Positions 6,029 through 54,431 of a stretch of 64,000 nt of DNA are shown here, in pieces (positions within the stretch are counted from its first letter, which is position 1; the number at the start of each line of letters is the position of its first letter). The stretch spans positions 96,001 through 160,000 of IMG/VR virus record IMGVR_UViG_3300032053_000004, one strand, 5' to 3'. The translations under genes and the position numbers were made by a program. The notes under the pieces were generated by a model, which worked only from the letters and a program-made list of their open reading frames with translations, was not told the origin of the DNA and ran no database searches. This DNA is from a virus (lineage: Duplodnaviria > Caudoviricetes).

Positions 6029-7552
6029 ATGGCCTGGAAAAAGACCGCTAAAGCTATAGTTACTCATAATAATATTCAGTTTGATGAGTGGATGGATGAA
6101 CTCCGTCGTAATAACGAGGGGGCCGTACCTGAATCTCAAATAACTCGAGTAGCTAAAACAGTTTTACGTAAGGCTGACCCGAAGCAGTTTCTTTTAAGTC
6201 ATGCGACTATAGTCGCATCAGTTGATACTTTTACTCCGAAAAATGCTAAGACTGGGCGTCAAATGGCCCAGGGAATCCAAATTGATGTCAGATATCCGAA
6301 TTTCCGGATCAATAAAGAATGTCAAGAATTAATCAATAATAATGGAGATGCCTGGGATCGTTCTTTGCTTCTTTCTACGTATCGAACCTTCATAGGTGCT
6401 CAAAATTATTTAGAGCATATACAAGTTCCAGAGCTCTCAAAGGGATTTATTGTTGACGCTATTGCCCGTGATTTAGGTCATACTTGCTATATAGATATAT
6501 TAGTCGCTACTGATAGGAAACATCAAAAATTAGTTAATGATATTTTATCTGGGGATATTTCTGGTCTTTCAATGGGTTGTGTCTCTCTTTTTACTATTTG
6601 TACGAAATGTGGGAACGTAGCTGCTGACGACACTCAACTTTGTCCGTGTATTCAATATGAAGGAAAAGGAACCATTTTCAAAGATGAAAATGGGATGGAC
6701 AGTAAAATTGCTGAACTTGTCGGACATGTGAGTTCGCCAAATTCTAATCAATTTATTGAAGCTTCTTGGGTTCGTAACCCTGCCTTCCGTGGAGCTGTTC
6801 GTCGAAATATATTAAATCCCAACACGGATCAAATTGCGGCTAAACTTGATGTTGCTTCTCAAGTTTATGAAATACGTTCATCTCAACCATTACCTGACGG
6901 TTTGAAGAAAGCGGCTTCAGTTAGATTTGCAGAAGGGCAAGAAGATGATTCCGCCCAAGATGATTCCGCCCAAGATGATTCGGATTCTCAAGATCAATCT
7001 CAAGATCAGGGTGATGAATCATCAGACTCCGGGGCTGAATCTAAGATTGATGAACTTGTAAACAAAACTCAAGAGCTTTTGCTTGAGGGAATTGTTAAAT
7101 CCTTAACTGATAAACTCGGTCCAAAGCCGGAAGATGTCGGATTTGTACAAGCTCCTATTGATTTAACTAACGAAAACGACAATCTAGTCAGATCTTCAAT
7201 AGATTTTAATCGAAAGCTTCAGAAGGCTTTCCCGAAAAATGTTAAGTTGGTTAAATGGGCGACTCGAGCTTATAAAATTGTACATGAAGGTGGAGTAAAA
7301 TCCATTCGTGCAAACAAAATGAATCCACGTGATTTAGTCGCACTTTCTTGGATTGAAGACCGAATAAACAATAAAGTTTATAGTCCAATTTTATATAAAG
7401 CAGTCATGTCTGCCGGGCCGATCATCAAGTATCCAAGCCCAAAATCTTATTTGGCAGCTTGCAGAGTTAGGATTGGAAGAAACGTCTCTAATAAAGAGTC
7501 TAAGTTTCTTATTTGGAAGGGGAAAATTGCGTCTTTTGCAATTTCCAATTGA
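6029..7552 (+). CDS. Prohead (maturation) protease, HK97/herpes-type fold with Zn-ribbon insertion
   Basis: Motifs NNNGDAW, YLEH, GFIVDA, LSMGC, CTKC..C and EASWVRNPAF, followed by an acidic linker and C-terminal domain. Located just before scaffold and MCP. Confidence 0.75.
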   Translation: MAWKKTAKAIVTHNNIQFDEWMDELRRNNEGAVPESQITRVAKTVLRKADPKQFLLSHATIVASVDTFTPKNAKTGRQMAQGIQIDVRYPNFRINKECQELINNNGDAWDRSLLLSTYRTFIGAQNYLEHIQVPELSKGFIVDAIARDLGHTCYIDILVATDRKHQKLVNDILSGDISGLSMGCVSLFTICTKCGNVAADDTQLCPCIQYEGKGTIFKDENGMDSKIAELVGHVSSPNSNQFIEASWVRNPAFRGAVRRNILNPNTDQIAAKLDVASQVYEIRSSQPLPDGLKKAASVRFAEGQEDDSAQDDSAQDDSDSQDQSQDQGDESSDSGAESKIDELVNKTQELLLEGIVKSLTDKLGPKPEDVGFVQAPIDLTNENDNLVRSSIDFNRKLQKAFPKNVKLVKWATRAYKIVHEGGVKSIRANKMNPRDLVALSWIEDRINNKVYSPILYKAVMSAGPIIKYPSPKSYLAACRVRIGRNVSNKESKFLIWKGKIASFAISN

Positions 7553-17389: not shown

Positions 17390-17848
17390 ATGACACCCGA
17401 TCAAGTTGCCAAGGCTCTTCTCCAAATTGCTGATGGGATTGAGAAATCGAAGAAGCCTCAAGTTTCTTTGGTGGCTCAAGATATATCTAAAGTTATTTCT
17501 GAGATTAGCGCTTCCCCTATTCAGATAAGGAAAGCCGCTTGGAGGGTAAGTGGGCCCCCCGCTTCTTTCACTGTTCGTTCTTCTAAAAAATCTGCGGAAG
17601 AAACCTGTCGCAGAATAGCTGGCTTGATGATGCGTCTTGCAGAAGACGAGGAACTTGGTCCTTGGGATTTAGAAGAAGGCGAGCGAACTGAAGATAAATG
17701 GGAAGACGCTCGTAAAGAAACTTCAAACGAGGAAAAACTCGAGTCTAAGTTGAAATTTCTTAAGCGCCAAATAGATAAATTTATAAGTGCTATTAAGAGT
17801 GGTGAAGAACCTGAGGGAGAATCTGAAGTTTTTACTTCCGCTAAATAA
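17390..17848 (+). CDS. Divergent member of the MKPSQ-leader family
   Basis: MTPDQVAKALLQIADGIEKSKKPQVSLVAQDISKVISEIS aligns without gaps to the 40-aa leader. Confidence 0.7.
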   Translation: MTPDQVAKALLQIADGIEKSKKPQVSLVAQDISKVISEISASPIQIRKAAWRVSGPPASFTVRSSKKSAEETCRRIAGLMMRLAEDEELGPWDLEEGERTEDKWEDARKETSNEEKLESKLKFLKRQIDKFISAIKSGEEPEGESEVFTSAK

Positions 17849-33138: not shown

Positions 33139-33139
33139 T

Positions 33140-33976: not shown

Positions 33977-33988
33977 CTTTATTAAACT

Positions 33989-36483: not shown

Positions 36484-37160
36484 TCCAGCAGGCCAAGCTC
36501 GTTCTACTCAGCGAGACCTACCTGACGACGGGCACGACCCACACGGTCAGCAGCAATACGCACAGGATCTTCATCGAGCTGGTCGGCGGCGGTGGTGGTG
36601 GCGGTGGTGCCTCTGGAACTGGCTCTCAAGCCGGGGCGGGAGCCGGTGGTGGAGCCGGTGGATACGGCTGCAAGGTCTTCGACGTGGTGCCCAGCACCGG
36701 CTACACCTACGCGATTGGAGCGGCTGGAACGGCTGGAGCGGCAGCGGCCGGTACTGGAGGCAACGGAGGCGACACGACCTTCGCGGTGGGGGCCACGACC
36801 GTCACGGCCAAGGGAGGCACCGGAGGTGTCGGTATGGCGAACGGCACGACCTCGTTGATCACCAAGGGCGGGGCCGGGGGTGTCGTCGGCTCCAACGGTG
36901 ACGTGAACGCTTCAGGGGACAACGGCGGTGATGGGGTTCGGTTGTCTGGCTCGATTCGTCGGGCCGGTGAAGGTGGCAGCGGTCCTTTTGGTGCCGGGGG
37001 GCAGAACACGAACGTCAGTGGAAACGGTGGCGCAGGTTCGGCCGGAACTGGCAACGGCTCAGGCGGTTCCGGTGGCAGCAGCGGCAACGTCACGAATCGA
37101 GCCGGTGGTGTCGGCACGGTCGGCGCCATCCTTGTGCAAGAATACGGTTACGTCACGTAG
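36480..37160 (+). CDS. Glycine-rich fibre-associated protein, paralogue of 35800
   Basis: Colinear with the upstream gene (SETxL.xGTT...YTYAIGAAGTA...GAILVxEY). Confidence 0.7.
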   Translation: MIQQAKLVLLSETYLTTGTTHTVSSNTHRIFIELVGGGGGGGGASGTGSQAGAGAGGGAGGYGCKVFDVVPSTGYTYAIGAAGTAGAAAAGTGGNGGDTTFAVGATTVTAKGGTGGVGMANGTTSLITKGGAGGVVGSNGDVNASGDNGGDGVRLSGSIRRAGEGGSGPFGAGGQNTNVSGNGGAGSAGTGNGSGGSGGSSGNVTNRAGGVGTVGAILVQEYGYVT

Positions 37161-37168
37161 GAGAAGTC

Positions 37169-37546
37169 ATGCCTTTCATCATCACAGCCCCAGAGACCAA
37201 GACGATCACACAGAAGTACGTGATCACGAACCCAACCAACGACGACGTTGTAGAGGTGAGTGCCGTCCGGACCATCGACCGCGTGAACATCGAGCACATC
37301 ATCACCAGTATGCCGATCAACAACCCGACCGGCGTCTCCATGACAGTCAAGTGGAGTATCGGCTACATGGACGGAGTCGTATTCTTCCCGACCGAGCGGG
37401 GCAGTGCCGAGCTGGCCGGTGAAGCGTTGCTGACCAAGATGGTCGAGCCGGTGATTCCAGGGGCCACCCACTATGGTGATCACAAGGCTGCGCTATACGA
37501 GCTTCTCGTTGCATTGGGCCACATCCCGGCTGGATCAATCGTATGA
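37169..37546 (+). CDS. Hypothetical protein of the fibre module
   Basis: SD AGGAG; ATGA overlap with the patatin gene. Confidence 0.6.
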   Translation: MPFIITAPETKTITQKYVITNPTNDDVVEVSAVRTIDRVNIEHIITSMPINNPTGVSMTVKWSIGYMDGVVFFPTERGSAELAGEALLTKMVEPVIPGATHYGDHKAALYELLVALGHIPAGSIV

Positions 37547-38400
37547 GAGCGTTGGTTCTCAGCGGGGGCGGGAGCAAGGGCGCGTATCAGGTCGGCGCGC
37601 TGAAGCGGTGGGTGTTTGAGGAAGGAGCAGACTACGAGATTCTGACGGGTATTTCGGTAGGAGCCATCAACACCACCTACCTCAGCCAGTATCCTGTAGG
37701 ACAGGGCAAGCAAGGCTACCAAGCCCTCAAGGATCTGTGGGACACTGTGACTCCTCGCAAGGTTAAGAAGAACTGGTTCCCCTTCTGCCAACTCGAAGCT
37801 CTCTGGAAGCCCTCTGTGTACAACTCGGAGCCTCTCCAGAAGTGGGTTCGGGGTGGTCTTGACACCGAGAAGGTCTTGGCTTCCGGGAAACTCCTTCGGA
37901 TCGTAACGGTCTCGTGGGACACCGGGGAGGCCAGAGTTATCTCTCAGGATGACTCTCAGCTTGCCGATTGGGTCATCGCAAGTTCAGCTTTTCCTGTCAT
38001 GTTGAGCCCCATCCGTATAGACGGTCAGCTCTGGACGGACGGCGGCCTAAGAAGCGTCACTCCACTCGGGGAGGCCATCCGTGCTGGAGCAACCGAGATT
38101 GACGTGATCATGTGCTCGGACCCTTATGCCAAGAGTCCGTTTGCATCGAAAGGCAAGGGAGCTTTCCCCAGCCTCACCATGCGAGCCATCGACATAATGT
38201 CTGACGAGATCATGAGGGCGGACTTGAAAATCTGTGGTCTCAAGAACGACCTGGCCGAACTAGATTCCAAATACCGGAAAGTCCATATTCGTCGTCTTCT
38301 AAAACCCTCTGTTGATTTAGGGGACTCTTTGGATTTCGAACAAAAGAATATCATTAGAATGGAAAAAATCGGGTATGATGATGCATGTAATTTAATTTAA
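37543..38400 (+). CDS. Patatin-like phospholipase
   Basis: GGGSKG oxyanion loop, GISVG nucleophile elbow and DGG catalytic motif. Confidence 0.9.
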   Translation: MRALVLSGGGSKGAYQVGALKRWVFEEGADYEILTGISVGAINTTYLSQYPVGQGKQGYQALKDLWDTVTPRKVKKNWFPFCQLEALWKPSVYNSEPLQKWVRGGLDTEKVLASGKLLRIVTVSWDTGEARVISQDDSQLADWVIASSAFPVMLSPIRIDGQLWTDGGLRSVTPLGEAIRAGATEIDVIMCSDPYAKSPFASKGKGAFPSLTMRAIDIMSDEIMRADLKICGLKNDLAELDSKYRKVHIRRLLKPSVDLGDSLDFEQKNIIRMEKIGYDDACNLI

Positions 38401-38424: not shown

Positions 38425-40920
38425 GTGAAAGCCCCCATATCGGCCTGTCTTATAGTTAAAAATGAAATTGGACAAATCGAAAATTGTCTTAAGTCTATAC
38501 GTCCATATGTAGAAGAAATAGTAGTAGTAGATACTGGTTCCACTGATGGAACTCCGGAAATAGTTAAAAAATATGCTGATATATTTGAAGTTTTTACAGG
38601 ATGCAATGACTCAGAAGGACGGATTGAATCTTTTTCTTTAGCAAGACAAAGAAGTTTTGATTTAGCTACTAAACCTTGGCTTTTTTGGATAGATGGTGAT
38701 GATGAGGTTCAAGGGGCCGAATATTTACTTGAATTAACTACAAAATATGATAAACTGAGAAATGGATCACCTGTAATGGTGATCATACCATATGATTATT
38801 CATTTGATGAAAAAGGAAATGTCACATGTCTTCATTATAGAGAAAGATTAATCACTCCAAAAACTGCATGCCATTGGGTTAGTCCTATACATGAAATTTG
38901 TACACCAAATGGTCCTGGGACCGTCATGGTCCAGGATGAAAAAGTTCGCGTTGTACATAAACGACATCTTGTAAATAAACCATTTGAGCAAAATCGGAAT
39001 CTTCGTATCCTAAAATCTCATTATGAAAAGCATGGCGAATCTGATATTCGTCATCTATACTACCTTGGTCTCGAGTATGGAAACGTTGGTGATCTAGGAA
39101 ATGCTATAAAATTTCATAAACGGTATGTTGAACTTTCAGGCTGGGATGATGAGAGGTTCCTCGCTTGTTTGAAGGTATCTGAACATTATCAATCAATGGG
39201 TGATTATGATAGTTCTGTTGATTGGGCTTCAAAAGCTCTCATAGTTAGAGAGGGTTGGTGTGAAGCTTATTTCTCTTTAGGGAGAAGTTTTTATTTCATG
39301 GCCCAAAAGGGCGGAAAAGATTCATATAGAAATTGGGAAAGAAGTGTTCATTTCTTTTCATTAGGGCTTTCTTTACCACCGACCAAAACTATTCTTTTTG
39401 TTAATCCGACAGAAAGAAATTATGATGTTCATAGATATTATAATTTAGCTTTACATAATGTAGGTCAAACTGAAAAAGCTTTGGAAAGTGTAAATCAAGC
39501 ACTTCAAATGAGACCTGATGATGATGGTCTTATTGGAAATAAAAAAATTTATGAAAATGATTTAGCTCGCAAGACGATAGATAAAAATTTATCTATTCTT
39601 CATAATATGGGAGTATTGTCTACCGACCAAAATCAATTGATCATAGATGTTCTTTCAGGAAAATTAACTAAATTAACTAAATCGAATGTTGAAAATAAAC
39701 AAGAAATTAAATCGGAAATCACCTTAGAAATTAAAAAAGAGTCCACACTTGGAACCGAAGAAGTTATACGACCTCTTAATGACCTTAAATCAGTAATAAA
39801 TACGAAATACGAAATCGTGTTTTATGTCGGTCCAGGTCCCGAATCTTGGACCCCAAATACTGCTAATAAGATTGGGATTGGTGGGTCTGAAACTGCTGTA
39901 ATAGAAATGGGTCGAAGATTAGCTAAACTTGGTCATACTATTCGAGTTTATGGAGATTGTCCGAATTCTGAAGGTGTATATGATGGTGTTTCATATTTTG
40001 ATCACACAAAATATCAAAATCAATCATGTGATATACTAATAACATCAAGAAGGCCAAACGCTGTAGACGATACTAATAATGTTAAATCTAGAGTTACGTT
40101 TTGTTGGGTCCATGATGTTAGTTGTGGTGGGGCTCTTACTCATGCAAGGACTATTCGAACAGATAAGTTTTTGACTTTGAGTCAGTGGCATAAAAACAAC
40201 TTTTTAAGTTCTCATGTTTCTGTTCATCCCGACCAAGTTATTGTTACTAGAAATGGTATTGATTTGAATAAATTCAAAAAATCTGTTCAAAGAAATCCTC
40301 ATAAAGCTGTTTATAGCTCAAGTCCAGATCGTGGGATGGAAGTTGCGGTTCGTATTTGGCCGCGAGTACGGGAAAAAATACCTGACGCGGAACTTCATGT
40401 GTTTTATGGTTTTCAAACTTGGGAAGTCTCAGCTGTCAATGACCCGGGTCAAACTAATTTAATTAAACATTTGAAAAATGTTCTTAAGGAACATGAGGAA
40501 CACGGGGTTATTTTTCATGGGAGAGTTAACCAAGAGGAACTTGCGAATCACTTTTTATCGAGTGGTGTTTGGCCATATAGTACTTGGTTTACCGAGACAA
40601 GTTGTATAACCGCTATGGAAGCCCAAGCCGCTGGCCTTAGAATTGTCACTTCTCCTATTGCTGCTCTAAATGAAACCGTCGGGCCTCGAGGAGTCATGAT
40701 CCCTGGTGATTGGCTATCTCCTGATTATCAAAATAAATTTGTTGATGCTGTTGTAGAAGCGATGAATAAAACTGACGATTCTGATCGTGAAATTTTAAAG
40801 AAATATGCAGAAGAAAATTTTGGTTGGGACTCGTTAGCAAACGACTGGGAAAAGATGTTTGAATCAGTCATTGAAGAAGTCTCAACAAATATGATTCCTC
40901 CTTATAAGGGGTACTTGTGA
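38425..40920 (+). CDS. GT2-TPR-GT4 multidomain glycosyltransferase
   Basis: ISACLIVKNE..VVVDTGSTDGT..FWIDGDD (GT2), TPR-like helices (YYLGLEYGN, AYFSLG), then GGSE...SSPDRG...FTETSCITAMEAQAAG (GT-B). Confidence 0.85.
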   Translation: MKAPISACLIVKNEIGQIENCLKSIRPYVEEIVVVDTGSTDGTPEIVKKYADIFEVFTGCNDSEGRIESFSLARQRSFDLATKPWLFWIDGDDEVQGAEYLLELTTKYDKLRNGSPVMVIIPYDYSFDEKGNVTCLHYRERLITPKTACHWVSPIHEICTPNGPGTVMVQDEKVRVVHKRHLVNKPFEQNRNLRILKSHYEKHGESDIRHLYYLGLEYGNVGDLGNAIKFHKRYVELSGWDDERFLACLKVSEHYQSMGDYDSSVDWASKALIVREGWCEAYFSLGRSFYFMAQKGGKDSYRNWERSVHFFSLGLSLPPTKTILFVNPTERNYDVHRYYNLALHNVGQTEKALESVNQALQMRPDDDGLIGNKKIYENDLARKTIDKNLSILHNMGVLSTDQNQLIIDVLSGKLTKLTKSNVENKQEIKSEITLEIKKESTLGTEEVIRPLNDLKSVINTKYEIVFYVGPGPESWTPNTANKIGIGGSETAVIEMGRRLAKLGHTIRVYGDCPNSEGVYDGVSYFDHTKYQNQSCDILITSRRPNAVDDTNNVKSRVTFCWVHDVSCGGALTHARTIRTDKFLTLSQWHKNNFLSSHVSVHPDQVIVTRNGIDLNKFKKSVQRNPHKAVYSSSPDRGMEVAVRIWPRVREKIPDAELHVFYGFQTWEVSAVNDPGQTNLIKHLKNVLKEHEEHGVIFHGRVNQEELANHFLSSGVWPYSTWFTETSCITAMEAQAAGLRIVTSPIAALNETVGPRGVMIPGDWLSPDYQNKFVDAVVEAMNKTDDSDREILKKYAEENFGWDSLANDWEKMFESVIEEVSTNMIPPYKGYL

Positions 40921-41861
40921 GAGTCATTGTAACAGGTGGGGCTGGATTTATCGGTTCACATCTTTCTCTGAGTTTGTTAGAACTTGGACACGAAGTCATA
41001 TGCATTGATAACTTTTTTACATCTCGTAAAGAAACTATTTCTAATCTCACATCTTTCTCAAATTTTGAATTGATGAGACATGACGTTTGTGATCCATGGC
41101 ATATAGAAGCTGACCAAATATACCATTTAGCTTGTCCTGCGAGTCCAGTTCATTATCAAAAAAACCCGGTAAGAACTATTAAAACTGCTATGATCGGGAC
41201 TTTAAACGCTCTTGAATGCGCTCGCGATACTAATGCTCGCCTAGTTATCACATCGACTTCTGAAGTTTATGGGGATCCGATTATTCATCCTCAATCAGAA
41301 GACTATTTTGGAAATGTTAACCCAATTGGTGATAGAAGCTGTTATGATGAAGGGAAAAGAGTCGGAGAAAGTTTAGCTGTTTCTTGGTCAAAACAATACA
41401 AAACTGATGTTAGAATAGCTCGTCTTTTTAATACTTACGGGCCTCACATGGCGTTTAATGACGGTCGTTTAATCCCGAATTTTATCCTTCAAGCTATTGA
41501 AGGAAACCCTCTTACAGTTTATGGAGACGGATCTCAAACTAGAAGTTTTTGTTATGTATCGGACACAGTTCGTGGACTAATAAAATTAATGAACGTAGAC
41601 CAATCAGATAAAGTTCCTGTCATAAATATCGGGAACCCGGATGAAAGAACTATTCTTTCAGTTGCTAACGATATAATTAAATCAATAAACACTTCCCTGC
41701 GTACGGTTCATGAGCCTCTCCCGTCAGATGATCCTAAACAACGGTGTCCTGACATCACAAAAGCTAAACTTCTTCTTGATTGGGAACCTGTTGTTTCTTA
41801 TGAAGAAGGCATATCGAAAACTGTGAAGTGGTTTACTTCTGAATCTCGGAGTAGAAAATGA
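40917..41861 (+). CDS. UDP-glucuronate decarboxylase (UDP-xylose synthase, extended SDR)
   Basis: TGGAGFIG, YHLACPASPVHYQ.NP..TIKT, STSEVYG, RSCYDEGKR and QTRSFCYV. Confidence 0.9.
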   Translation: MRVIVTGGAGFIGSHLSLSLLELGHEVICIDNFFTSRKETISNLTSFSNFELMRHDVCDPWHIEADQIYHLACPASPVHYQKNPVRTIKTAMIGTLNALECARDTNARLVITSTSEVYGDPIIHPQSEDYFGNVNPIGDRSCYDEGKRVGESLAVSWSKQYKTDVRIARLFNTYGPHMAFNDGRLIPNFILQAIEGNPLTVYGDGSQTRSFCYVSDTVRGLIKLMNVDQSDKVPVINIGNPDERTILSVANDIIKSINTSLRTVHEPLPSDDPKQRCPDITKAKLLLDWEPVVSYEEGISKTVKWFTSESRSRK

Positions 41862-43135
41862 ATTGGGAATCTCGTAAAAATATCGGTCCTAATGGACCCT
41901 CAGAAACAGATTTTCCTGTTGCTGTAAATACCCCTCATTCTCAAGCTTGGGGCATACCTGAAGAATTTTTTATCGAAGAACTTCCTCTTCGAATGACTGA
42001 TAATCAATTACAATCCATGGTTCTTACCATTTGGAGAGAATTCATTCTTAATGATGAAGTTTTATCTGCAATTTCATTTCTTGAAAACGCACCATATAGA
42101 GTTCGCCATACTGAAGCAACCACTCGCGCCTTAAACATAACTAAAAAATCTATTGAGTGGATGTTTGATCATTCTAAAAGTCAAACTATAAATACTCCCC
42201 GTGATCCAAACGGGGTTCCATTCACAATAGAAGTTGGCAACATTCTTCCGGATCCTCTAACAGGACAACTTGAAGGAAGGTCTACTTGGATTACCAATAG
42301 ATTAACTCCTGGTTGCAGTCTTATAGATTTCGGTTGTATTGACGGATCTATGACAAACCGTTGGGGGATGTCAGGATTTAAAGTAACCGGTGTTGATCTG
42401 AGTATGAATTCAATATCTATAGCAAACAAGAAAGCTATTCAGTTTAATACTGGAGCTAAGCATATATGCTCTTATTTTAAGAACATTCCGAACCATATCA
42501 TACAAAATTCTTTTGATGTCGCTACCTGTAGTGATACATATGAACATCTTATCGACCCTATTGTTGATTTACTAGAACCGGCCAGAAAATGTCTTTCTGG
42601 CCATGGAAGAATGCTTTTAGTTACTCCTCATGGAGCCTGGTTTCGTGGTAAATTTCTTTCTTGGGCCCATCCTTGGTCTTGGTATAAGAGTGGTTCTTCC
42701 TGGTTAAAACCAGAACCAAGAGCTCATTTAGTAGCGCCAACTGTTTGGTCTGTTGCGGATCATTTTCGAAAATCTAAATGGTGGGTTAAATCCTCTGAGG
42801 TTGTTATACAGTCTTATGGGGACGTTCCTGGTCAAGGAAATGTGTGTGTGGAAGCTTTCGTTAACCCTCCACCTGTTTGGCCGGGTTTAGATATTGTAGT
42901 TTTGGGGTCTAATTTTGAATTGGCTGAATCTTTAGCTCTTCTCGGTAATAGAGTTCGCCATTTCGGACCTTGGGATGAAGAAAAGATATCGAATTTTGTT
43001 GATCATATATTTGACTCAAAACTATTTGATATCAAATGTGACGTTCTAATTTCTGATACGAACGTTGATTCTGTCGTTTCTAATAAAATTTATCCAAGCT
43101 CTGCTTCAGCTTCTGACGTTATCAATGGTGTCTAA
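41858..43135 (+). CDS. Class I SAM-dependent methyltransferase with a degenerate GT-like C-terminus
   Basis: LIDFGCIDG (motif I), TGVDLS, FDVATCSDTYEHL and GRMLLVTP. Confidence 0.8.
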   Translation: MNWESRKNIGPNGPSETDFPVAVNTPHSQAWGIPEEFFIEELPLRMTDNQLQSMVLTIWREFILNDEVLSAISFLENAPYRVRHTEATTRALNITKKSIEWMFDHSKSQTINTPRDPNGVPFTIEVGNILPDPLTGQLEGRSTWITNRLTPGCSLIDFGCIDGSMTNRWGMSGFKVTGVDLSMNSISIANKKAIQFNTGAKHICSYFKNIPNHIIQNSFDVATCSDTYEHLIDPIVDLLEPARKCLSGHGRMLLVTPHGAWFRGKFLSWAHPWSWYKSGSSWLKPEPRAHLVAPTVWSVADHFRKSKWWVKSSEVVIQSYGDVPGQGNVCVEAFVNPPPVWPGLDIVVLGSNFELAESLALLGNRVRHFGPWDEEKISNFVDHIFDSKLFDIKCDVLISDTNVDSVVSNKIYPSSASASDVINGV

Positions 43136-44283
43136 TGAGAATTGCTTTCTTAAATCATCCTATTGGGGTCAGAGACCCTGTTAATCCTGTTGATGTTTGG
43201 ACCTCTTCTAGAGGTTTAACAGGATCTGAGATTGCTTTTTTTAAATACGCAGAAGAACTAACCAAACTCGGTCATGACGTAAATTTATTTACCAAATTTA
43301 CTACTTCCGACCCGTTGGGTGGAAACGGACCTTATTGCATTCCTTATGATCAATGGGAAAGCATTTATTCTAAACAGAGTTGGGACGCAGCTTGTTGTTG
43401 GACGGTTGCGGACCCTCTTTCTTTAGTTGGTCCTGGAATATTTAGATTTTTGAATCATCAATGCAACGGATTTAGCGTCAGTCTTTCTGGTTGGGAAAAA
43501 TATGTTGATATAATAGCGCCTCTTTCTCATACTCACGCTAGAGCTTTATCTAAAGATACGTCATTTTCTAAGGATAAATGGAGAATTCTCTACAATGGCG
43601 TTGATTGTTCTAAATTTTATCCTGAAAATAAAGAGTCTGGAAAATTGATTTGGGCTTCCTCTTTAGATAGAGGACTTCATTGGTTATTAGAATCTTTTCC
43701 TTATATCAAAAGAAAAGCTCCTAACACGGAACTTCACGTCTTCTATGATTTCCATTCAATAGAACACGCGGCTGAGGTCTATTATCCTGGCGGGCAGCCG
43801 TATTTCACGAATGAACACTTTGAACTTGGGAACCGGGCTCGTTATATTTTGCGTGCTCTTCAAAAACTTGAAGGAAAAGGTGTTCATGTCCATAAATCAG
43901 TTAGTCGTTCCAGAATAGAACAAGAAATGAAAACTTCTTCTATCTTGGCCTATCCTTTAGATTCTATTTATTTTACTGAAACTTTCGGTGTCGTTGTTTT
44001 AGAAGCGTGTGCTTCAGGGACTATTCCCGTTCTATGTCTTGGCGATGCGTTCGGTGAGCTTTGGGGAGAAGTTGCTGAATCAGTTCCTCCCCCGTTTAAA
44101 GATCATAAAAATGAATATTTAGAAAAATTAATCAAATGTTTGACTGATGACGCATATAGGGACAATCTATCTAAAAAATGCGTTGATCATGCTAAGAAGT
44201 TTGAGTGGTCAGTTCTCGCTAAAGGATTGGAAAAGTGCCTCTTGACTAAGGGTCAAGAGGGCCTTCCTCTTGTTGATTGGTGA
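43135..44283 (+). CDS. Glycosyltransferase, GT4-like (GT-B)
   Basis: GLTGSE, SSLDRGL and ETFGVVVLEACASG. Confidence 0.85.
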   Translation: MRIAFLNHPIGVRDPVNPVDVWTSSRGLTGSEIAFFKYAEELTKLGHDVNLFTKFTTSDPLGGNGPYCIPYDQWESIYSKQSWDAACCWTVADPLSLVGPGIFRFLNHQCNGFSVSLSGWEKYVDIIAPLSHTHARALSKDTSFSKDKWRILYNGVDCSKFYPENKESGKLIWASSLDRGLHWLLESFPYIKRKAPNTELHVFYDFHSIEHAAEVYYPGGQPYFTNEHFELGNRARYILRALQKLEGKGVHVHKSVSRSRIEQEMKTSSILAYPLDSIYFTETFGVVVLEACASGTIPVLCLGDAFGELWGEVAESVPPPFKDHKNEYLEKLIKCLTDDAYRDNLSKKCVDHAKKFEWSVLAKGLEKCLLTKGQEGLPLVDW

Positions 44284-44287
44284 CATA

Positions 44288-45415
44288 ATGAATTTAAAAA
44301 TTGCTTTTATTTATGGAAACTGGTGTTTGGGGAATCGTCCCATTAATGTCAATGAATTATTTACATCTAAACGGGGTCTTACTGGCTCGGAACTTTCTTG
44401 TTTTATGTTTGCAAAAGAAATGGCTAAGAAAGGTCATAACACTTCATTATTCATAGGCGGCGGGTCAGGAGAATGGGAAGGAGTTAAAATTCGCGATATA
44501 TCGGAGATATCATCTATTGATCCAACTTGGGATGTCGCCTATTCTTGGAATGAACCAGATCTTCTTCGTCAAGTAAACGCTAATTTGCGGATGATGAATC
44601 AGCAACTTAATGATTTTGCTTATTGTCAACCTGGGTATGACGAATCTGTTGATGTTTATACAAGTCCTTCACAAACTCATATGGAGTTTCTTAAACCTCA
44701 AACACCGTCGCCCAATAAATGGGCAGTTATTCCTAACGGTTGTGATCCGAGTCAATACTCAGCCGGGAAAAAAGTTCCTGGAAGAGTTATTTATGCCTCC
44801 TCTCCTGACAGAGGACTTCATCTTTTGATGCAGGCTTGGCCTCGTATTAAGAAAAATGCTCCCCATGCTCATTTGAAAATATTTTATAACATGGATTACT
44901 GGTTGTCTGTTTTTGTTGGTCAAGAACACTCTATATACCCTGATTCAATGGAATATGGGTATAGAGCTAGGTATATAGATTTAGCTTTTAAAAGATTTGC
45001 TGATTTAGGCGTAGAAAGAGTTGGGTCAGTTAGTCGAGAAGAAATAGCTCAAGAAATGTCAGAAGCTGAAGTTCTGGCATACCCATGTGATACTGCCCGT
45101 TTTACAGAAGGATTTTCTGTAACAACGATGGAGGCTTGCGCTGCTGGAGCTGTTCCAGTCATTTCTTCCGTTGATGCTTTAGGTCAAATATATGGATCAT
45201 TTATACCAACTGTTGAAGCCCCGGTGAAGAATAGATTAAATGAATTTGCTGATATAATATCTCGTTCTCTTAATGATGAAAAATTCCGGAATAGTGTCAT
45301 ATTTAAAGCAAAAAGTCTTGCCCATAAACATAAATGGGAAAAACTTTCTTCTGATCTTGAGAGTTTGATTATGAATAAGTTAGAGTTAAAAAGATGTTCC
45401 CAGCCTCTCATTTAA
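44288..45415 (+). CDS. Glycosyltransferase, GT4-like (GT-B)
   Basis: GLTGSE, SSPDRGL and EGFSVTTMEACAAG; ATG 44288 preferred. Confidence 0.85.
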   Translation: MNLKIAFIYGNWCLGNRPINVNELFTSKRGLTGSELSCFMFAKEMAKKGHNTSLFIGGGSGEWEGVKIRDISEISSIDPTWDVAYSWNEPDLLRQVNANLRMMNQQLNDFAYCQPGYDESVDVYTSPSQTHMEFLKPQTPSPNKWAVIPNGCDPSQYSAGKKVPGRVIYASSPDRGLHLLMQAWPRIKKNAPHAHLKIFYNMDYWLSVFVGQEHSIYPDSMEYGYRARYIDLAFKRFADLGVERVGSVSREEIAQEMSEAEVLAYPCDTARFTEGFSVTTMEACAAGAVPVISSVDALGQIYGSFIPTVEAPVKNRLNEFADIISRSLNDEKFRNSVIFKAKSLAHKHKWEKLSSDLESLIMNKLELKRCSQPLI

Positions 45416-46932
45416 CCCGTCACGCCCGCTCTCAAATAGAAAAGATTCCGGTACTTCTTATAGTGCCGCCGTCTATTTTTTTACTTGATGAACGTGTATT
45501 CATATCTTTAGGAATTTTGAAAGTAGCCGCGAGTCTTGAAGCGGCCGGGCATTCTGTTGAAGTTTTAGATTTATCAGGGATTGATAATTTTGAAGAAGTT
45601 TCTGCGATTCAGGCTAAAAATTCTTCTTCAAACATAGCTTGTTTAACTATCACAACTCCTCAACTCCCTGCGGCCGTAAAAATAGTTAAGTCTATTCGCA
45701 ACGCTCGTCCTGACATGAAAATTGTGGCAGGTGGTCCACATGTTACTCTAGTTCATTCTGCAGTTAAACTTGAGAGAAAAGCCGGTCGAATCGGTCGAGC
45801 TCACCGAGCCTTAACGAAACTTGAAGAAATTTTCAATGTTCTTGTGAGTGGTGATGGTGAAAATTCTATTTTTCAAGCTATTAGTGAAAATGCTTCTAAA
45901 GTAATTGATGCTGATGACCCTAAAAACGGTCTGTTTATGACGAATGAAGTTTATGGATCTACTCCTTGGCCCGCTCGTCATTTGATTGATATAAAATCAT
46001 ATAAATACACAATTGAAGGTTTTCCAGCAACTAGTTTAATAGCTCAACTTGGGTGTCCGTTTGGTTGCACATTTTGCGGAGGAAGAAACAGTAATATGCT
46101 CCGGAGGATTCGTACGAGATCCACCGAAAGCATTGTTGGAGAAATTGAGCATCTTCATAAAAATTACGGCTATACTGGGTTTATGCTTTATGACGACGAA
46201 CTTAATGTATCAAAAACAATTATTGAGCTTATGAACTCTATTGCGGATTTACAAGAGAAACTTGGAGTTGAGTTTAGATTACGAGGTTTCATTAAGAGTC
46301 AGTTGTTTACTGACGAGCAGGCTCAAGCTATGCGAAGAGCTGGATTTCGGTGGCTTCTTTGCGGATTTGAAGCTGCTAATGATCGGATACTTGAAAATAT
46401 AAACAAACGAGCCGATTTAGCAGATAATAATCGAGTGATGGAGATCGCAGCTCGTCACGATCTTAAAGTAAAAGCTTTGATGAGTGTTGGTCACGCTGGA
46501 GAGTCAGAAAAATCCATAATGGACGTGCGAGATTGGCTGCTTCAAGTTCATCCCGCAGATTTTGATGTAACGACTATCACAACTTATCCAGGCACTCCGT
46601 ATTATGATGAAGCTTTAGAACATCCGGAGTTGCCTGATGTTTGGACATATACGGCCAAAAACGGAGATAAACTTCATAGTTATGATGTAGATTATACTGC
46701 TGTTGCTGATTATTATAAAGGAGACCCGAGTGGCGGATACCATTCATATGTATTTACAGATTATTTATCTGGAGACGAAATAGTAAAACTTCGAGATCAA
46801 GTTGAAAACGAAGTTCGAGAAAAACTGAATATTCCATTTAATCCTGGGGCTCCAGGGGTTAAATATGAACATTCAATGGGTCAAGGACCTCTTCCATCAA
46901 ATATTCTTAGACAATCTAAAATTAATAAATAA
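45394..46932 (+). CDS. Cobalamin-binding radical SAM protein (class B methyltransferase-like)
   Basis: N-terminal B12-binding Rossmann motifs (LGILKVAASLE, IVAGGPH) and the CxxxCxxC motif CPFGCTFC. Confidence 0.85.
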   Translation: MFPASHLTRHARSQIEKIPVLLIVPPSIFLLDERVFISLGILKVAASLEAAGHSVEVLDLSGIDNFEEVSAIQAKNSSSNIACLTITTPQLPAAVKIVKSIRNARPDMKIVAGGPHVTLVHSAVKLERKAGRIGRAHRALTKLEEIFNVLVSGDGENSIFQAISENASKVIDADDPKNGLFMTNEVYGSTPWPARHLIDIKSYKYTIEGFPATSLIAQLGCPFGCTFCGGRNSNMLRRIRTRSTESIVGEIEHLHKNYGYTGFMLYDDELNVSKTIIELMNSIADLQEKLGVEFRLRGFIKSQLFTDEQAQAMRRAGFRWLLCGFEAANDRILENINKRADLADNNRVMEIAARHDLKVKALMSVGHAGESEKSIMDVRDWLLQVHPADFDVTTITTYPGTPYYDEALEHPELPDVWTYTAKNGDKLHSYDVDYTAVADYYKGDPSGGYHSYVFTDYLSGDEIVKLRDQVENEVREKLNIPFNPGAPGVKYEHSMGQGPLPSNILRQSKINK

Positions 46933-48941: not shown

Positions 48942-49796
48942 ATGAATATTTTTTCTTTAGCATCCATAGCCATACGAATTGCCGGTTTTGAACATCAGGC
49001 ATATATAAAGAAAACTCCTGGGAAGGGATATTGTGTTAAATCTCCAAAAAATCCTGATTGGTCAGGAGGATGCTATCCTACTAAAGGTGAAGCTCAAAAA
49101 CGTCTTCAACAAGTTGAAATGTTTAAATCTCTGAAAGGTAAGAAGAAGAAAGCTTCTCAAAATAGAATAATTGAAAAACAACAAAATTTAATTTCTGATT
49201 CAGAAATGAATAATATAAATTCTGATCTTGGGAACGCTAAAAATCCAGGTGACACTTTAAAAATTCTTGATAAACATAATTTAGAAATTTCAAAAACTAG
49301 TATGAAACGTTGGTATAGGCCAAATATTAGTTATCAGTTGAAATATAAAGATATAAAACATCCTATACGAAACGCCGAATTTTATGTGGATTCTTCTGAA
49401 GGAAGTGGAGGAGGAATATTTTCTGAACTTAGAAAAACCAGTGTCATCCGTCCTTTAAAGGCAAACGAAGCTCGCGATTTAGATATACTTTTTCTTTCGT
49501 GGGATTTGATCGTTAAAAATCCAGGGTCTATAATACTTGATGTTTCAGATATTTCTAAAAATCCTGACGTAAGCCCGATTGATTTAGATATGTATCTAAA
49601 AACTAAAAGTAATAAATTCATAGATATCCCTAGTGCCATTTCTTTTATTGTTAACACTGGAAAACCTGGAGATTTAATCCGATTAAATGAAGGAAAACAA
49701 CAAAAGAAATATGATTTTAAATCTTTTCGAAATGAATCAGAAAGTTTAAAGCATGGAGACTGGTTTCCAGATCCACAAGCATCTTTTGAATTTTGA
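48942..49796 (+). CDS. Hypothetical protein, possibly virion-internal
   Basis: Begins MNIFSLASIAIRIAG; contains a CYPTKGEAQKRLQQVEMFK helix motif. Confidence 0.55.
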   Translation: MNIFSLASIAIRIAGFEHQAYIKKTPGKGYCVKSPKNPDWSGGCYPTKGEAQKRLQQVEMFKSLKGKKKKASQNRIIEKQQNLISDSEMNNINSDLGNAKNPGDTLKILDKHNLEISKTSMKRWYRPNISYQLKYKDIKHPIRNAEFYVDSSEGSGGGIFSELRKTSVIRPLKANEARDLDILFLSWDLIVKNPGSIILDVSDISKNPDVSPIDLDMYLKTKSNKFIDIPSAISFIVNTGKPGDLIRLNEGKQQKKYDFKSFRNESESLKHGDWFPDPQASFEF

Positions 49797-50785: not shown

Positions 50786-50873
50786 CGTTGAATTGTTTAG
50801 TTGAATTACTCCTGCTAAAACGAAGTTTGTCTATAAGCTGCGTGATTAAATTTTTTTTTGATTTTAATTTAAT

Positions 50874-51299
50874 ATGAAGCCTTCTCAAGTCGCCATAGCT
50901 CTACGTCGTATCGCTGCCGGAATTCAGGCTTCAAAAAATCCTGACAAGAATCTAGTTGCTCGAGATCTAAAGAAAATTATATCTAAAATAGCAGGCATGA
51001 ATAATATGGATGGGATTAAGTGTTTAAAAGTTAATATTAGAGAACATAAACCGTTAACACGAGACACCCCTTACCCAGTTATCGATGGAGTTTTTCAATT
51101 TAGTACTCCAAACGGGCATATTATAGATTTTGATGGAAGATTTGATCCTAATGACGTTCGATTTGTTCTTCTTAAAGATGGGGAAGATGTTTCAGATCAA
51201 ATTGAGCCAGATGCATATAATATGGGTCCTGTTGATGAAAATTTAGAGGGTTTCGATCTTGAAGAAATTCTTGAGCATTGTATGAATTCTCAAGTTTAG
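50874..51299 (+). CDS. MKPSQ-leader cassette 1 (acidic cargo)
   Basis: 40-aa conserved leader plus 101-aa unique domain. Confidence 0.85.
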   Translation: MKPSQVAIALRRIAAGIQASKNPDKNLVARDLKKIISKIAGMNNMDGIKCLKVNIREHKPLTRDTPYPVIDGVFQFSTPNGHIIDFDGRFDPNDVRFVLLKDGEDVSDQIEPDAYNMGPVDENLEGFDLEEILEHCMNSQV

Positions 51300-51338
51300 A
51301 TTTTTTTTTTGATTTTTTTTTTTGATTTTTAATTTAAT

Positions 51339-51803
51339 ATGAAGCCTTCTCAAGTCGCCATAGCTCTACGTCGTATCGCTGTCGGAATTCAGGCTTCAAA
51401 GAAGCCTGACCGAAGGCTTGTAGTTCGAGATCTAAAGAAGATCATAGCTAAAGTGGCTCTTCTTGGCCTTCTCAAACCTTATTTGTTATTTACATCCCAC
51501 GCTGGAAGTGCAATATGGGAAATTTATGGACCAATTAATATCAACGATTTTAAGAACGCTGTGAAAAATTATAATTCAGATGATTCATCTACAGAACGTG
51601 GTTCAGACGGAACAGCATATTTTTTTGAAAATTCTGAGGATTTAATGAATAGATGGTCTGAAACTGGATTTGATTCAGTCGAATCCATTGATGACGCGTT
51701 AAATTCAGTTGAAAATCACGGTGACATGAGTTCTGACGAATCTATGAGAATGTTAACTGGTGAAATTGATGGTCTTACTGGAGTCGATTCTGAAGGCAAC
51801 TAG
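51339..51803 (+). CDS. MKPSQ-leader cassette 2 (acidic cargo)
   Basis: 40-aa conserved leader plus 114-aa unique domain. Confidence 0.85.
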   Translation: MKPSQVAIALRRIAVGIQASKKPDRRLVVRDLKKIIAKVALLGLLKPYLLFTSHAGSAIWEIYGPININDFKNAVKNYNSDDSSTERGSDGTAYFFENSEDLMNRWSETGFDSVESIDDALNSVENHGDMSSDESMRMLTGEIDGLTGVDSEGN

Positions 51804-51832
51804 TATATAGATAAAGTTTTTTTTAAATTGGC

Positions 51833-51952
51833 GTGAAGCCTTCTCAAGTTTCTATGACTTGGGAAGTTAATTGCTCCCCCCGAAGTTTTATGGAGGACCC
51901 CGTAAAGTTACATATGATGAGATTGAAAGAAAGTATAGTCTTTAATGGATAA
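51833..51952 (+). pseudogene. Remnant MKPSQ cassette
   Basis: GTGAAGCCTTCTCAAGT behind a T8 tract matches the leader's first codons; similarity is lost after codon 6. Confidence 0.5.
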
Positions 51953-52454
51953 TCTAGATTCTGAAGCTTTAGCTGAACGTTATATAAATAGAATGTATAT
52001 AGACCACCCGGCTGTTCGCTGGTGGGCACATCCTCGAATTTTAGTTGGTGGATCGATTAACAATTCTGATGATTTTGAAAATATGCAAAATAAATTCGGG
52101 GTTACATCAGTAATCTCCGTAGAATCCGAGCATTCGGATTCAGGCAAAGTTCCTGAAGCAATTTTATGTCATCTTCCAACACCAGATGATGGATCCGCAC
52201 CGTCTGTCCAGCATTGGAAGACACTGATAGATTTCGCCCAAGTCGCACTGAAAGACCCTTCTTCTAAGGTCTATGTCCATTGCCAGATGGGCGGTAGCCG
52301 TTCTCCGGCTGCAGCTTATGCTATCTTGCGGACTGTATTTAATTTCAGCCCGGAAGATGCCCTATCCAGTATCCAGCGTTTTAAAACTGAATATGGTGGG
52401 CATTGGTACCACCAAAATTATATTGGATCTGTTGAGACAGCTCTCACTTCTTGA
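51945..52454 (+). CDS. Dual-specificity protein phosphatase
   Basis: YVHCQMGGSRS (HCxxGxxRS), TPDDG acid loop and ILVGG. Confidence 0.85.
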   Translation: MDNLDSEALAERYINRMYIDHPAVRWWAHPRILVGGSINNSDDFENMQNKFGVTSVISVESEHSDSGKVPEAILCHLPTPDDGSAPSVQHWKTLIDFAQVALKDPSSKVYVHCQMGGSRSPAAAYAILRTVFNFSPEDALSSIQRFKTEYGGHWYHQNYIGSVETALTS

Positions 52455-53040
52455 TAGTATATAACCCCTTTTTCGGACTACTGAACAATCTCTTATGATT
52501 GTAGAAAGCAGAAGAAAGCATCTTCTTCCAGTCCTTAGCGGAAGATTTAAACCCTGAAGCTTTAAGCTCCTTTATAATTTCTTCTGCATTCATAGGATTT
52601 ACAGATTTGCTTAAAATCTTATGGATAAGGGTTTGAATCGGGGTTGAATTGATAATTCGACCGTTCGATAATTTTTTAAATGAATGCGCCGCGGCCCATG
52701 CCTGCTCGTAGATGGGGTTATCTGAAGATTTCTCTTCTTGCGGCGCAGTTTTCTTAGCAATTTTCTTAGTAATTTTCTTAGTAATTTTCTTAGCAGTTTT
52801 CTTAGCAGTTTTCGGTTTTTTCGATTCTTCTTGCTTTGTTCCGGACAAAGCAAGAATTTCTTCGGTTATTTTATTGAGTTCGGACTCCATAGACTGTCGC
52901 TTGGAAGATAGACTATGGAGTTTTAAATGTTTAGAATTTATTATCTCCTGGAGTTGTTGGATTGACATACTATCGATCTTGGATTTCTTCATTTCGAGTT
53001 TCTCCTGTTTGGGTTTCTCTGCTTTTGGCAGATTTACCAT
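52444..53040 (-). CDS. Putative DNA-binding protein: coiled coil, H1-like AKKT repeats and winged helix
   Basis: KTAKKTAKKITKKITKKIAKKTA, then a C-terminal IHKIL...MNAEEI...GLYTI wHTH pattern. Confidence 0.6.
   Translation of the reverse strand: MVNLPKAEKPKQEKLEMKKSKIDSMSIQQLQEIINSKHLKLHSLSSKRQSMESELNKITEEILALSGTKQEESKKPKTAKKTAKKITKKITKKIAKKTAPQEEKSSDNPIYEQAWAAAHSFKKLSNGRIINSTPIQTLIHKILSKSVNPMNAEEIIKELKASGFKSSAKDWKKMLSSAFYNHKRLFSSPKKGLYTIKK
52749..52808. repeat. 12-nt coding tandem repeat x5
   Basis: ttttcttag(c/t)a(a/g) units. Confidence 0.9.
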
Positions 53041-53084
53041 TTTACAATTGAAATAATAGGATTTTTTTTTTCTTTTAAGTTAAT

Positions 53085-53486
53085 ATGAAGCCTTCACAAG
53101 TTGCCATAGCCCTTCGTCGTATTGCTTCCGGAATTCAGGCTTCAAAGAATCCTGATAAGAGGCTCGTCGCGAGGGATTTAAAGAAAATTATTGCTGAAAT
53201 AGCAGGAATGGATATGGATGAACTTCCATTCAAAGGTGACTCGGAATTTGAAGAAGTGATGATTGGAATCATGTTTGATCAAGAAATTGGACTTGATAAC
53301 GCTATTAATAAAGCAAAAGAACTAATTGAAAGAGATGGGTTTAAAACTGGGAAATTTATGATCGACCATCATCGCCCTGGGACAATTGTTGGAAATATGG
53401 AAATTTCTCCCGGGTTTTATGATAAATTCTCTGATGGTTGGGAGTCAGAGGATGAAGGTGTAATTGTTACCCTGGAAGCTCCTTGA
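53085..53486 (+). CDS. MKPSQ-leader cassette 3 (acidic cargo)
   Basis: 40-aa conserved leader plus 93-aa unique domain. Confidence 0.85.
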   Translation: MKPSQVAIALRRIASGIQASKNPDKRLVARDLKKIIAEIAGMDMDELPFKGDSEFEEVMIGIMFDQEIGLDNAINKAKELIERDGFKTGKFMIDHHRPGTIVGNMEISPGFYDKFSDGWESEDEGVIVTLEAP

Positions 53487-53537
53487 TCATAATATTGTGT
53501 TTGGTTAAATCGTTCATTAAAAATAAACATTGAACCT

Positions 53538-53969
53538 ATGGATATGAATAATATTGCCATTCGGGTAGCTTCCATGAATCTGGAAGCGGCGAAGAAGAAA
53601 AAGAAAAAACCGAAGAAGACCGGTTTAAAATCTAAAAAACCAGCTCGGGTCTCCCAACCTAGAATTTTGGAGTCTATTACGGCTCCTGAGACTGAATATT
53701 CGTGCCGGGCTGAAATATCTTTCAGTGTTGATTTTGAAGGAAATGTATCTAAAGACAAACTTACTCGGGCGCTTAAACGGGAAATAATGGCGTCCCTCGG
53801 TTCAGCCGTAACTTCCGTCTCAAGAAGTTTTCAGATTTCAGCTTCAAATGTTCTAGTGAAGCCGATTGCTTTTGAAATTGCTACTAGTGACCAATTCATG
53901 GTCGAAGATATGGACGAGCTTGGTGAAGCCGGGTCAGAAATTGATGACCCTAATTACGAAGATACATAA
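53538..53969 (+). CDS. Hypothetical protein, possibly virion-internal
   Basis: NNIAIRVAS motif, poly-Lys patch and acidic tail. Confidence 0.6.
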   Translation: MDMNNIAIRVASMNLEAAKKKKKKPKKTGLKSKKPARVSQPRILESITAPETEYSCRAEISFSVDFEGNVSKDKLTRALKREIMASLGSAVTSVSRSFQISASNVLVKPIAFEIATSDQFMVEDMDELGEAGSEIDDPNYEDT

Positions 53970-53993
53970 ATTTTTTTTTAGATCATAACTAAT

Positions 53994-54431
53994 ATGAAGC
54001 CTTCACAAGTTGCTATAGCTCTTCGTCGTATTGCATCAGCTATTCAGGCTTCAAAAAATCCTGATAAGAATCTAGTTGCGAGGGATTTAAAGAAAATTAT
54101 ATCTAAAATAGCAGAAGGGCCTATTGATTGGGCTGACATCGAAAATACACTATTTAACGCTCTTAATAATTCAGATTCCGTTGAATCTGAAGTCTTTGAT
54201 GAAATAAGTGGATTAGATAATCTTAATCAACAGTATGGTCTTGTATTTTCACAAGTAATAGATCTTGATCAAAATATTGGTATTCAGGTTTCTTACGAAG
54301 GAGATTTTGATTTGGTTTGGTTCGGACCGATTTCTTCTTTTGATAAAACGGCAAAAGCAAAAGCAGCATCAGACGCTATTTTATCTGCTCAGAATTTCAG
54401 CTCGTTCCTCGAAGAAGATTTACTTCAATAA
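53994..54431 (+). CDS. MKPSQ-leader cassette 4 (acidic cargo)
   Basis: 40-aa conserved leader plus 105-aa unique domain. Confidence 0.85.
   Translation: MKPSQVAIALRRIASAIQASKNPDKNLVARDLKKIISKIAEGPIDWADIENTLFNALNNSDSVESEVFDEISGLDNLNQQYGLVFSQVIDLDQNIGIQVSYEGDFDLVWFGPISSFDKTAKAKAASDAILSAQNFSSFLEEDLLQ

Follow-up and report, generated by a model that had tools for sequence, protein, structure and literature searches.

A shared 40-residue N-terminus on four phage proteins

What connects neighbouring phage genes that begin alike and then diverge completely? The question is raised by a 64,000-nucleotide stretch (the window), bases 96001-160000 of a 202,143-bp IMG/VR virus record (IMGVR_UViG_3300032053_000004; completeness ~47% by CheckV). 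Four + strand open reading frames (ORFs) of the window, 50874-51299, 51339-51803, 53085-53486 and 53994-54431, have a common N-terminus of 40 amino acids (aa), here called the module, followed by variable parts called payloads. The source is an uncultured sediment huge phage; DNA of this phage is present in many sediment metagenomes, and relatives of the record include complete 393-436-kb genomes with terminal repeats. Judged from sequence comparison, the module is an undescribed protein family, within our searches confined to a lineage of uncultured huge phages. The family structure is solid, and the functions discussed below are hypotheses. Coordinates refer to the window, except that C1 coordinates of the record count along its whole 202,143 bp (C1 113390 is window 17390). 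The four cassettes comprise:

50844..50873, + strand: upstream element of cassette 1, a T9 run and then an A/T-rich stretch ending TTAAT right before the ATG
50874..50993, + strand: module copy 1 (40 codons; profile E 8.5e-31)
50994..51299, + strand: payload 1 (101 aa, pI 4.3), probably beta-rich
51300..51338, + strand: upstream element of cassette 2, with two T-runs
51339..51458, + strand: module copy 2 (profile E 1.1e-28)
51459..51803, + strand: payload 2 (114 aa, pI 4.1)
53041..53084, + strand: upstream element of cassette 3, with a T10 run
53085..53204, + strand: module copy 3 (profile E 7.8e-31)
53205..53486, + strand: payload 3 (93 aa, pI 4.2), starting with a GMDMDELPFKG segment
53970..53993, + strand: upstream element of cassette 4, with a T9 run
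53994..54113, + strand: module copy 4 (profile E 2.9e-30)
54114..54431, + strand: payload 4 (105 aa, pI 4.1), modelled by AlphaFold2 in the order helix, helix, three strands, helix

The initial annotation of this DNA had described a near-identical 40-aa leader on the four genes and, after it, a switch to mutually unrelated payloads of 93-114 aa. Both observations were borne out. The module is invariant at 31 of 40 positions, the later copies match the first at 79-90% identity, and a module profile recovers its four source copies in their own genome at E values of 1e-28 to 1e-31, which chance would not produce. Beyond residue 40 the four proteins are not alignable to each other. BLAST found no link between the payloads (101, 114, 93 and 105 aa), and hhalign gave probabilities below 0.5%, with shallow profiles and one payload folded, so the payloads may yet share a fold. 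The payloads have a pI of 4.1-4.3 and their modules one of 11-12.

Relatives of payloads 1 and 4 carry the module too. The payload-1 homologues P0004 and P0116 are module-tagged, as are all four homologues of payload 4 found in other phages; searches with payload 4 alone, meant to find homologues lacking the module, returned tagged proteins only, in a word-limited search that does not thereby establish absence. A natural variant of gene 2 (P0005) has an internal deletion in payload 2. With the model of the 53994 protein, Foldseek gave no significant match in PDB, VIA-align wide or ESM Atlas; payload 4 is weakly similar to the folds of dsRBD, Acb4 and type III secretion chaperones (Z<=6.3), a level of likeness that common arrangements also reach.

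Selection on the module and its predicted shape

Leader codons were said to differ mainly at synonymous sites, and this holds. By the Nei-Gojobori method, applied to module codons, dN/dS among the four window leaders is 0.03-0.34 (dS 0.3-1.9), and synonymous differences exceed non-synonymous ones in 5 of 6 pairs. Between the window leaders and the dispersed copies of the same genome synonymous sites are near saturation, yet 55-78% of residues are kept. The low dN/dS, together with a peptide kept at near-saturated synonymous sites, indicates that the module peptide is under purifying selection. The module evolves more slowly than its payloads (among payload-4 orthologues, modules are 63-80% identical and payloads 29-42%) and is nearly constant across the paralogues of one genome.

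Roughly, the module follows the pattern P-S-Q-V-A-x-x-L-R-R-I-A-x-x-I-x-x-S-K-N-P-D-x-x-L-V-A-R-D-L-K-K-I-I. In the AlphaFold2 model of the 53994 protein it forms helices at residues 3-19 and 25-40 with the S-K-N-P-D turn between them (block pLDDT 76-85). Residue conservation, taken from a 25-sequence alignment, shows invariant hydrophobic stripes (L10, I13, I17, L27, V28), small residues (A14, A29), helix caps (P3, Q5, S20, P23) and D31. The helix 1 pattern Ile-Ala-x-x-Leu-x-x-Ile-Ala resembles that of coiled coils designed to pack their helices over a larger interface (CC-Type2), and a broad Ala/Gly-rich hydrophobic face of helix 1 may be left free for another helix.

Two familiar folds were considered and rejected. 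A J-domain (NPDKN resembling HPDKN) does not fit a turn that conserves Pro alone, and a ribbon-helix-helix does not fit a model that is helical from residue 3, with no space for a strand. The RIIa and DPY-30 families (PF02197, PF05186) were not among the Pfam matches at E<=0.1, and the generic hairpin shape is uninformative in this respect.

Distribution of the module

Searching the record itself with the module profile gave 11 copies in 202 kb, the seven outside the array at E values of 1e-8 to 1e-25. What had been described as a local array is therefore real as a set of four adjacent genes, but it is only part of a set dispersed over 130 kb. The eleventh copy lies at the C-terminus of a 331-aa protein, after a long acidic linker; the other copies are listed here:

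C1 37416, 39302, 68905, 85010, 113390, the four array genes and 161765: ten N-terminal module copies, located with the profile
17390..17848, + strand: fifth module gene of the window, more divergent (module 55% identical) and without a T-run

Module pI is 10-12 in 9 of 10 copies of this genome and payload pI 4.1-5.9. Profile comparison found one related payload pair in the record, genes 39302 and 161765. Just downstream of the fifth module gene lies a 348-aa gene of unassigned function (17922-18968), with a 41% identical homologue near a tandem-module gene of another phage contig (L058 4000-4761); this gene and the module genes may have a conserved linkage. The complete 393-436-kb relatives have 3-5 copies each (five module genes in G002) and a 308-kb record has 10. 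No copies were found in LR745208, a more distant relative whose protease is 40% identical.

The wider family was collected by searching 1.84 billion representative proteins with the 40-position profile. At E<=1e-3 this yielded 897 metagenomic clusters, of which 302 reach E<=1e-10. In 133 (84%) of 159 fetched members the module is solely N-terminal; the remaining 26 (~16%) have it at both termini (10), internally (7), at the N-terminus and internally (6), or C-terminally or otherwise (3). Two modules and an Ala/Pro-rich linker, with no payload, make up the whole of six proteins of 88-103 aa. Module-only ORFs of 41-47 aa also exist, and both these and C-terminal copies recur in IMG/VR loci. The payloads of 169 proteins fall into 118 BLAST clusters, of which 90 are singletons, and a Pfam scan of 131 members found LRV/HEAT repeats alone, in two or three proteins.

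No known standalone domain matching the leader was found in Pfam, PHROGs or PDB sequences. The four window proteins matched no family in Pfam (E<=0.1) or PHROGs, and the module profile found nothing below an E of 0.2 among PDB sequences. There was likewise no match for the full protein or the module by tblastn in 50,697 GenBank phage records, no module relative in a one-pattern scan of 185,579 prokaryote genomes, and no usable match in an ESM Atlas feature search with the module.

A putative docking module

A module that is kept better than its payloads, at either protein end, through flexible linkers and in tandem, is most simply read as a docking domain. We give about even chances to the reading that it is an autonomous two-helix docking module. 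As an address tag it would bring fast-changing accessory proteins to one conserved partner, and a single partner is suggested by the fact that all paralogues keep the same module surface. Given the Ala/Gly-rich hydrophobic face of helix 1, binding may occur by formation of a helix bundle with that partner.

The same features bear on self-association, in which two hairpins would form a four-helix bundle and the module would dimerise payloads or mix paralogues with no separate receptor. Proteins of two modules and a flexible linker do exist, and helix 1 has a broad hydrophobic face at the a, d, e and g positions. The AlphaFold2 model of a tandem protein shows the hairpin twice, joined by a 19-residue disordered linker, and its pTM of 0.56 in spite of that linker may reflect some packing of the hairpins. 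However, Foldseek with this model returned only poor four-helix-bundle rows (rmsd 11-15 A). A homodimeriser, moreover, would be under no pressure for sameness across 11 paralogues and across phages, and divergence against cross-pairing would be expected. We therefore consider self-association unlikely.

The charge of the proteins raises another alternative, namely that the basic hairpin binds DNA or RNA like SAP/HeH motifs and tethers acidic payloads to the phage genome or the host nucleoid. The contrast between basic modules and acidic payloads agrees with it, as do the occurrence of the module at either end and in tandem, which is common to many DNA-binding motifs, and a tandem-only gene that adjoins an HU-like gene. 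On the other hand, the module had no Pfam match to SAP, HeH, Rho_N or HhH even at an E of 0.1. Conservation of its basic residues is only moderate; the positions that do not vary are hydrophobic, small or helix-capping. A conserved Gly in the turn is typical of SAP/HeH-type helix-loop-helix motifs, and the module turn lacks it. Such a tether has a low probability in our judgement, and we retain docking to one conserved partner as the preferred reading.

Upstream element and exchange between cassettes

The conserved block of the four array genes begins before the ATG, a feature that the initial annotation does not mention: their 24-44-nt upstream gaps are filled by a T9-11 run and A/T-rich DNA that ends in TTAAT. 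A T7+ run within 50 nt upstream is found at 6 of 241 called genes, five of which are leader genes (copy 68905 included), and shorter T-runs precede many module-gene orthologues in other phages. Since the T-run element is nearly private to them, the leader genes appear to form a regulatory class of their own. Genes 85010 and 146874 (window 50874) have nearly the same 30 nt upstream despite differences at 57% of synonymous sites, so the element has been either selected or recently converted.

Other upstream patterns were seen in this genome. In G000 C1 1-32 kb a GC-rich promoter-like motif (AAGCCGCAA, 12-17 nt, GCGTATCGGG, GGAGG) stands before ~14 genes, the genome being otherwise AT-rich, and regions upstream of genes are enriched 7-fold in the hexamer GTATCG.

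The idea that leader DNA provides homology for exchange found partial support. In a sister strain with the same gene order (L053), codons 21-38 of the 50874 leader are the exact sequence of the adjacent 51339 leader, and the window strain differs from L053 at 13 nt within these codons of the first leader; this tract is a gene conversion between adjacent leaders. A mosaic junction was found in the payload-1 homologue P0004, from another metagenomic sample, which has a 9-aa insert after the module with 7 of 9 residues equal to the start of payload 3. In four sediment runs loose contig ends fall at the leaders, where paralogues and orthologues cross-map; the cover is fragmentary and silent on cargo swaps. 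Copy numbers in the genomes compared vary from 0 to 11. A complete cargo swap was not observed.

Genomic neighbourhood

The gene context in the window includes:

6029..7552, + strand: candidate head maturation protease, whose counterparts in the complete relatives G001 and G003 are 59-61% identical to it
51945..52454, + strand: dual-specificity phosphatase-like gene inside the array, without the module (PF00782, E 9.1e-9)
52444..53040, - strand: Lys-rich repeat protein inside the array, without the module (weak HARE-HTH, E 0.0011, below the Pfam cut-off)
53538..53969, + strand: 143-aa protein inside the array, with another short N-terminal motif in its sequence (MDMNNIAIRVAS)

Upstream of the array lie an operon of glycosyltransferase and radical-SAM genes, two unknown ORFs and a tail-fibre-like ORF at 47701 (PHROG E 1.9e-5). 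On the downstream side there are a gene at 54800 that weakly matches 'virion structural protein', an actin-like protein and weak DUF2460 matches. With the neighbours 54800, 49838 and 57398 as queries, PDB sequences gave no match. The location among neck genes proposed in the initial annotation was not verified: the flanks are weakly tail-fibre-like and virion-like, and the rest are the phosphatase, the HARE-HTH-like gene and unknowns. We saw no consistent tie of module genes to head genes.

Some neighbours deserve mention in their own right. The 342-aa protein at 57398-58426 matches Pfam Volactin (PF25216, an archaeal actin-like family) over its full length at an E of 9e-72, and the huge phages LR745208 and LR756511 have proteins 50% and 30% identical to it; the match suggests an actin-like protein encoded by the phage, in a region that is partly structural. 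One contig of the four sediment runs has a 36-nt in-frame deletion at 52770-52807, in the KKIT/KKIA repeat of 52444-53040, which was the only joint that these contigs showed. The protease-candidate homologue of G002 (C1 299465-302212) is split into three matching pieces within one 925-aa ORF, a layout that suggests an intein-like insertion. A segment of 50-63% GC (27157-38400), in a genome of ~38% GC, contains a 1993-aa ORF and is followed by an operon with glycosyltransferase, methyltransferase and B12-radical-SAM genes (38425-46932). In another locus (L059; G004 C1 215500-222500) three adjacent ORFs of 331-401 aa start with divergent modules and continue into long charged low-complexity bodies; by eye only, they adjoin the apparent C-terminal part of a tail-sheath ORF.

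The B12-binding radical-SAM gene (45394-46932), 4 kb upstream of the array, invites a comparison with the leaders of RiPPs, peptides made on ribosomes and then modified by enzymes; on this view the radical-SAM enzyme, or some other one, would recognise the leader and act on the proteins. Proximity is the point in its favour. Nevertheless, a homologue of the enzyme is absent from G002 with its five module genes, the enzyme lies apart from the module genes of G001 and G003, and in the present genome it is the last gene of the glycosyltransferase operon. The payloads, in addition, are folded domains of 70-126 aa and not short core peptides. Because enzyme and module do not co-occur, recognition by this enzyme is largely excluded, and the idea as a whole is very improbable.

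The initial annotation favoured a capsid-loading leader in the manner of T4. The T4 capsid-targeting sequence (CTS) is ~10 aa long and strictly N-terminal, and the protease gp21 removes it by cutting behind a conserved Glu motif. By analogy, the N-terminal 40 aa would bind the prohead core, a head protease would cut near residue 41, and the payloads would be injected as anti-defence effectors. The predominantly N-terminal placement of the module agrees with this proposal, and so do the candidate head maturation protease and the position of the array between a tail-fibre-like and a weakly virion-like gene; the varied, fast-evolving payloads recall the polymorphic internal-protein loci of T-even phages (PMC3012670). 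The junction, however, has no conserved residue, none being found beyond residue 36 in the 25-sequence alignment, and the I/L-x-E motif near it in about half of the copies of this genome is absent in most relatives. The C-terminal, internal, tandem and payload-free copies (26 of 159 members are not N-terminal-only) do not suit a signal that is clipped off the N-terminus, and the module is fourfold longer than the T4 sequence and, in the model, a folded hairpin. Peptidase_S77 (PF03420) was not found in the 202-kb record, which is ~47% complete, and in related phages the gene contexts are non-structural. Cleavage in the T4 manner is unlikely because there is no conserved junction motif, many copies are not N-terminal and Peptidase_S77 was not found in this incomplete genome, which does have the different protease candidate at 6029-7552. 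The full T4-type proposal, down to injected effectors, is improbable, and the claim of a leader cleaved near residue 41 found no support. Of the "longer modular address tag" the part that survives is one conserved module on many unrelated payloads; the specific T4 analogy is not supported.

Other terminal tags

Two further terminal motifs occur in this genome. The first, M-x(2-6)-[KRS]-[IV]-A-[SI]-R-[IV]-A, is N-terminal on 13 proteins, among them window 48942-49796 and 53538-53969 and C1 33907, 34627, 35302, 71225, 86758 and 168068. Its frequency within the first 20 residues is 17 times that at other positions; the carriers include two kinase-like proteins (PHROG 3297), and a related phage also has the motif (L017 3460-3822, - strand). 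The second is C-terminal, an acidic stretch followed by T-x-E-[VIL]-[VIL]-[DE]-[SAG], on ~30 of 241 proteins. Carriers are found in G000 C1 2-51 kb (outside the window) and at window 13370-13591, 14191-14514 and 17041-17328. This tag is on only 3 of 159 module proteins and so marks a separate protein set.

Where the module may dock

If the module is a docking domain, its partner could be the interior of the procapsid, as for P22 scaffolding protein. By this analogy it is the leading single candidate, though a doubtful one, and a phage assembly outside the virion or a host hub is about equally likely. In the capsid version, the payloads would be co-packaged and then ejected with the DNA.

Several observations weigh against these proposals. 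A two-helix hairpin is generic, and fold and sequence searches (Pfam, PDB, Foldseek) tied the module to no known docking domain. Both the binding and the partner are hypothetical, and the likeness of the four array leaders owes partly to gene conversion and not to selection alone. A capsid destination is further disfavoured by the strong acidity of the payloads and by the scatter of module copies across the genome. The payload-4 orthologue of a related phage has non-structural neighbours, RNA-repair-type genes and RuvB (by eye phosphatase-, macro-, LigT- and RuvB-like). Tandem-only genes are found among small accessory ORFs, where they adjoin HU-like, cytidylyltransferase-like or RuvB genes, and not between portal and capsid genes.

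A broader and more speculative version of the docking reading would have the hairpin plug dozens of interchangeable effector domains into one hub by helix-bundle formation, the hub being the procapsid interior or a host machine, and payloads being exchanged by recombination in module DNA. The K-I-A-S-R-I-A helix (13 proteins) and the acidic ...E-V-L-E-S tag (~30) may then be further channels or docking partners. Taken jointly, these proposals are rather improbable.

Were the module a docking tag, it would show how huge phages organise or deliver their many small accessory proteins, a fast-changing set in which assigned functions are the exception. The module would also represent a 40-aa portable handle, usable at either protein end, for finding the hub, for listing the cargo of uncultured phages from sequence and possibly for loading foreign proteins. 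Independently of function, the ~900 clusters without a Pfam or PHROG entry are a concrete new domain to define.

Comparison with known systems

In T4, a common N-terminal peptide sends unrelated, polymorphic internal proteins into the scaffolding core (PMC3012670). The module is similar to the CTS of IPI, IPII, IPIII and Alt in being one conserved peptide on otherwise unrelated small phage proteins. It differs as a 40-aa hairpin with neither a conserved cut site nor sequence similarity, known here from genes alone, and in occurring also C-terminally, internally, in tandem and free of payload.

The C-terminal helix-turn-helix of P22 scaffolding protein binds coat protein and loads foreign cargo (10.1101/2022.12.13.520362, PMC9962691). 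Here too the element is short, basic and helix-turn-helix, flexibly joined to its cargo, and the P22 element suffices to dock fusions to the capsid interior. A basic helix-turn-helix of 30-40 aa is what the AlphaFold2 helices and a pI of 10-12 in 9 of 10 copies describe. In contrast, there is no detectable sequence relation (PDB profile search; Pfam, PHROGs), and P22 has one scaffold gene in its head module, compared with 3-11 dispersed module genes with unrelated payloads. Nor do the module genes lie between the portal/protease and major capsid genes; they are dispersed, and the tandem-only genes are elsewhere.

MuF polymorphic toxins of temperate phages combine a conserved N-terminal domain with highly variable C-terminal domains and have been proposed to travel in the capsid (PMC5576092). 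They share with the module proteins the fusion of a conserved phage domain to variable ones. However, MuF is a large head-morphogenesis domain and the module a 40-aa one with no Pfam match, on payloads that are small and acidic and lack toxin signatures or evident paired immunity genes. No MuF (Phage_Mu_F) domain was found in the four window proteins (Pfam E<=0.1) or in 131 relatives (E<=0.001).

Outside phages, dockerin-cohesin, F-box-Skp1 and RIIa-AKAP pairs also place a module of ~40 aa, more conserved than its cargo, on many proteins that meet at one hub. This likeness is functional only, as there is no sequence or fold match and the hub is hypothetical here. Putative short tags of huge phages (MNRYDIALGKKP, MNWYK) would also put one peptide on many unrelated proteins, but they are of 8-17 residues and strictly N-terminal, whereas the module is a position-independent domain of 40 aa.

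An architecture of one tag on many payloads is thus already known from T4, MuF and engineered P22. By its sequence the module belongs to none of these, and it falls outside the T4 CTS and MuF groups because the features that define them were not found in it. What distinguishes it is a predicted folded, position-independent and repeatable domain of 40 aa, present in ~900 clusters.

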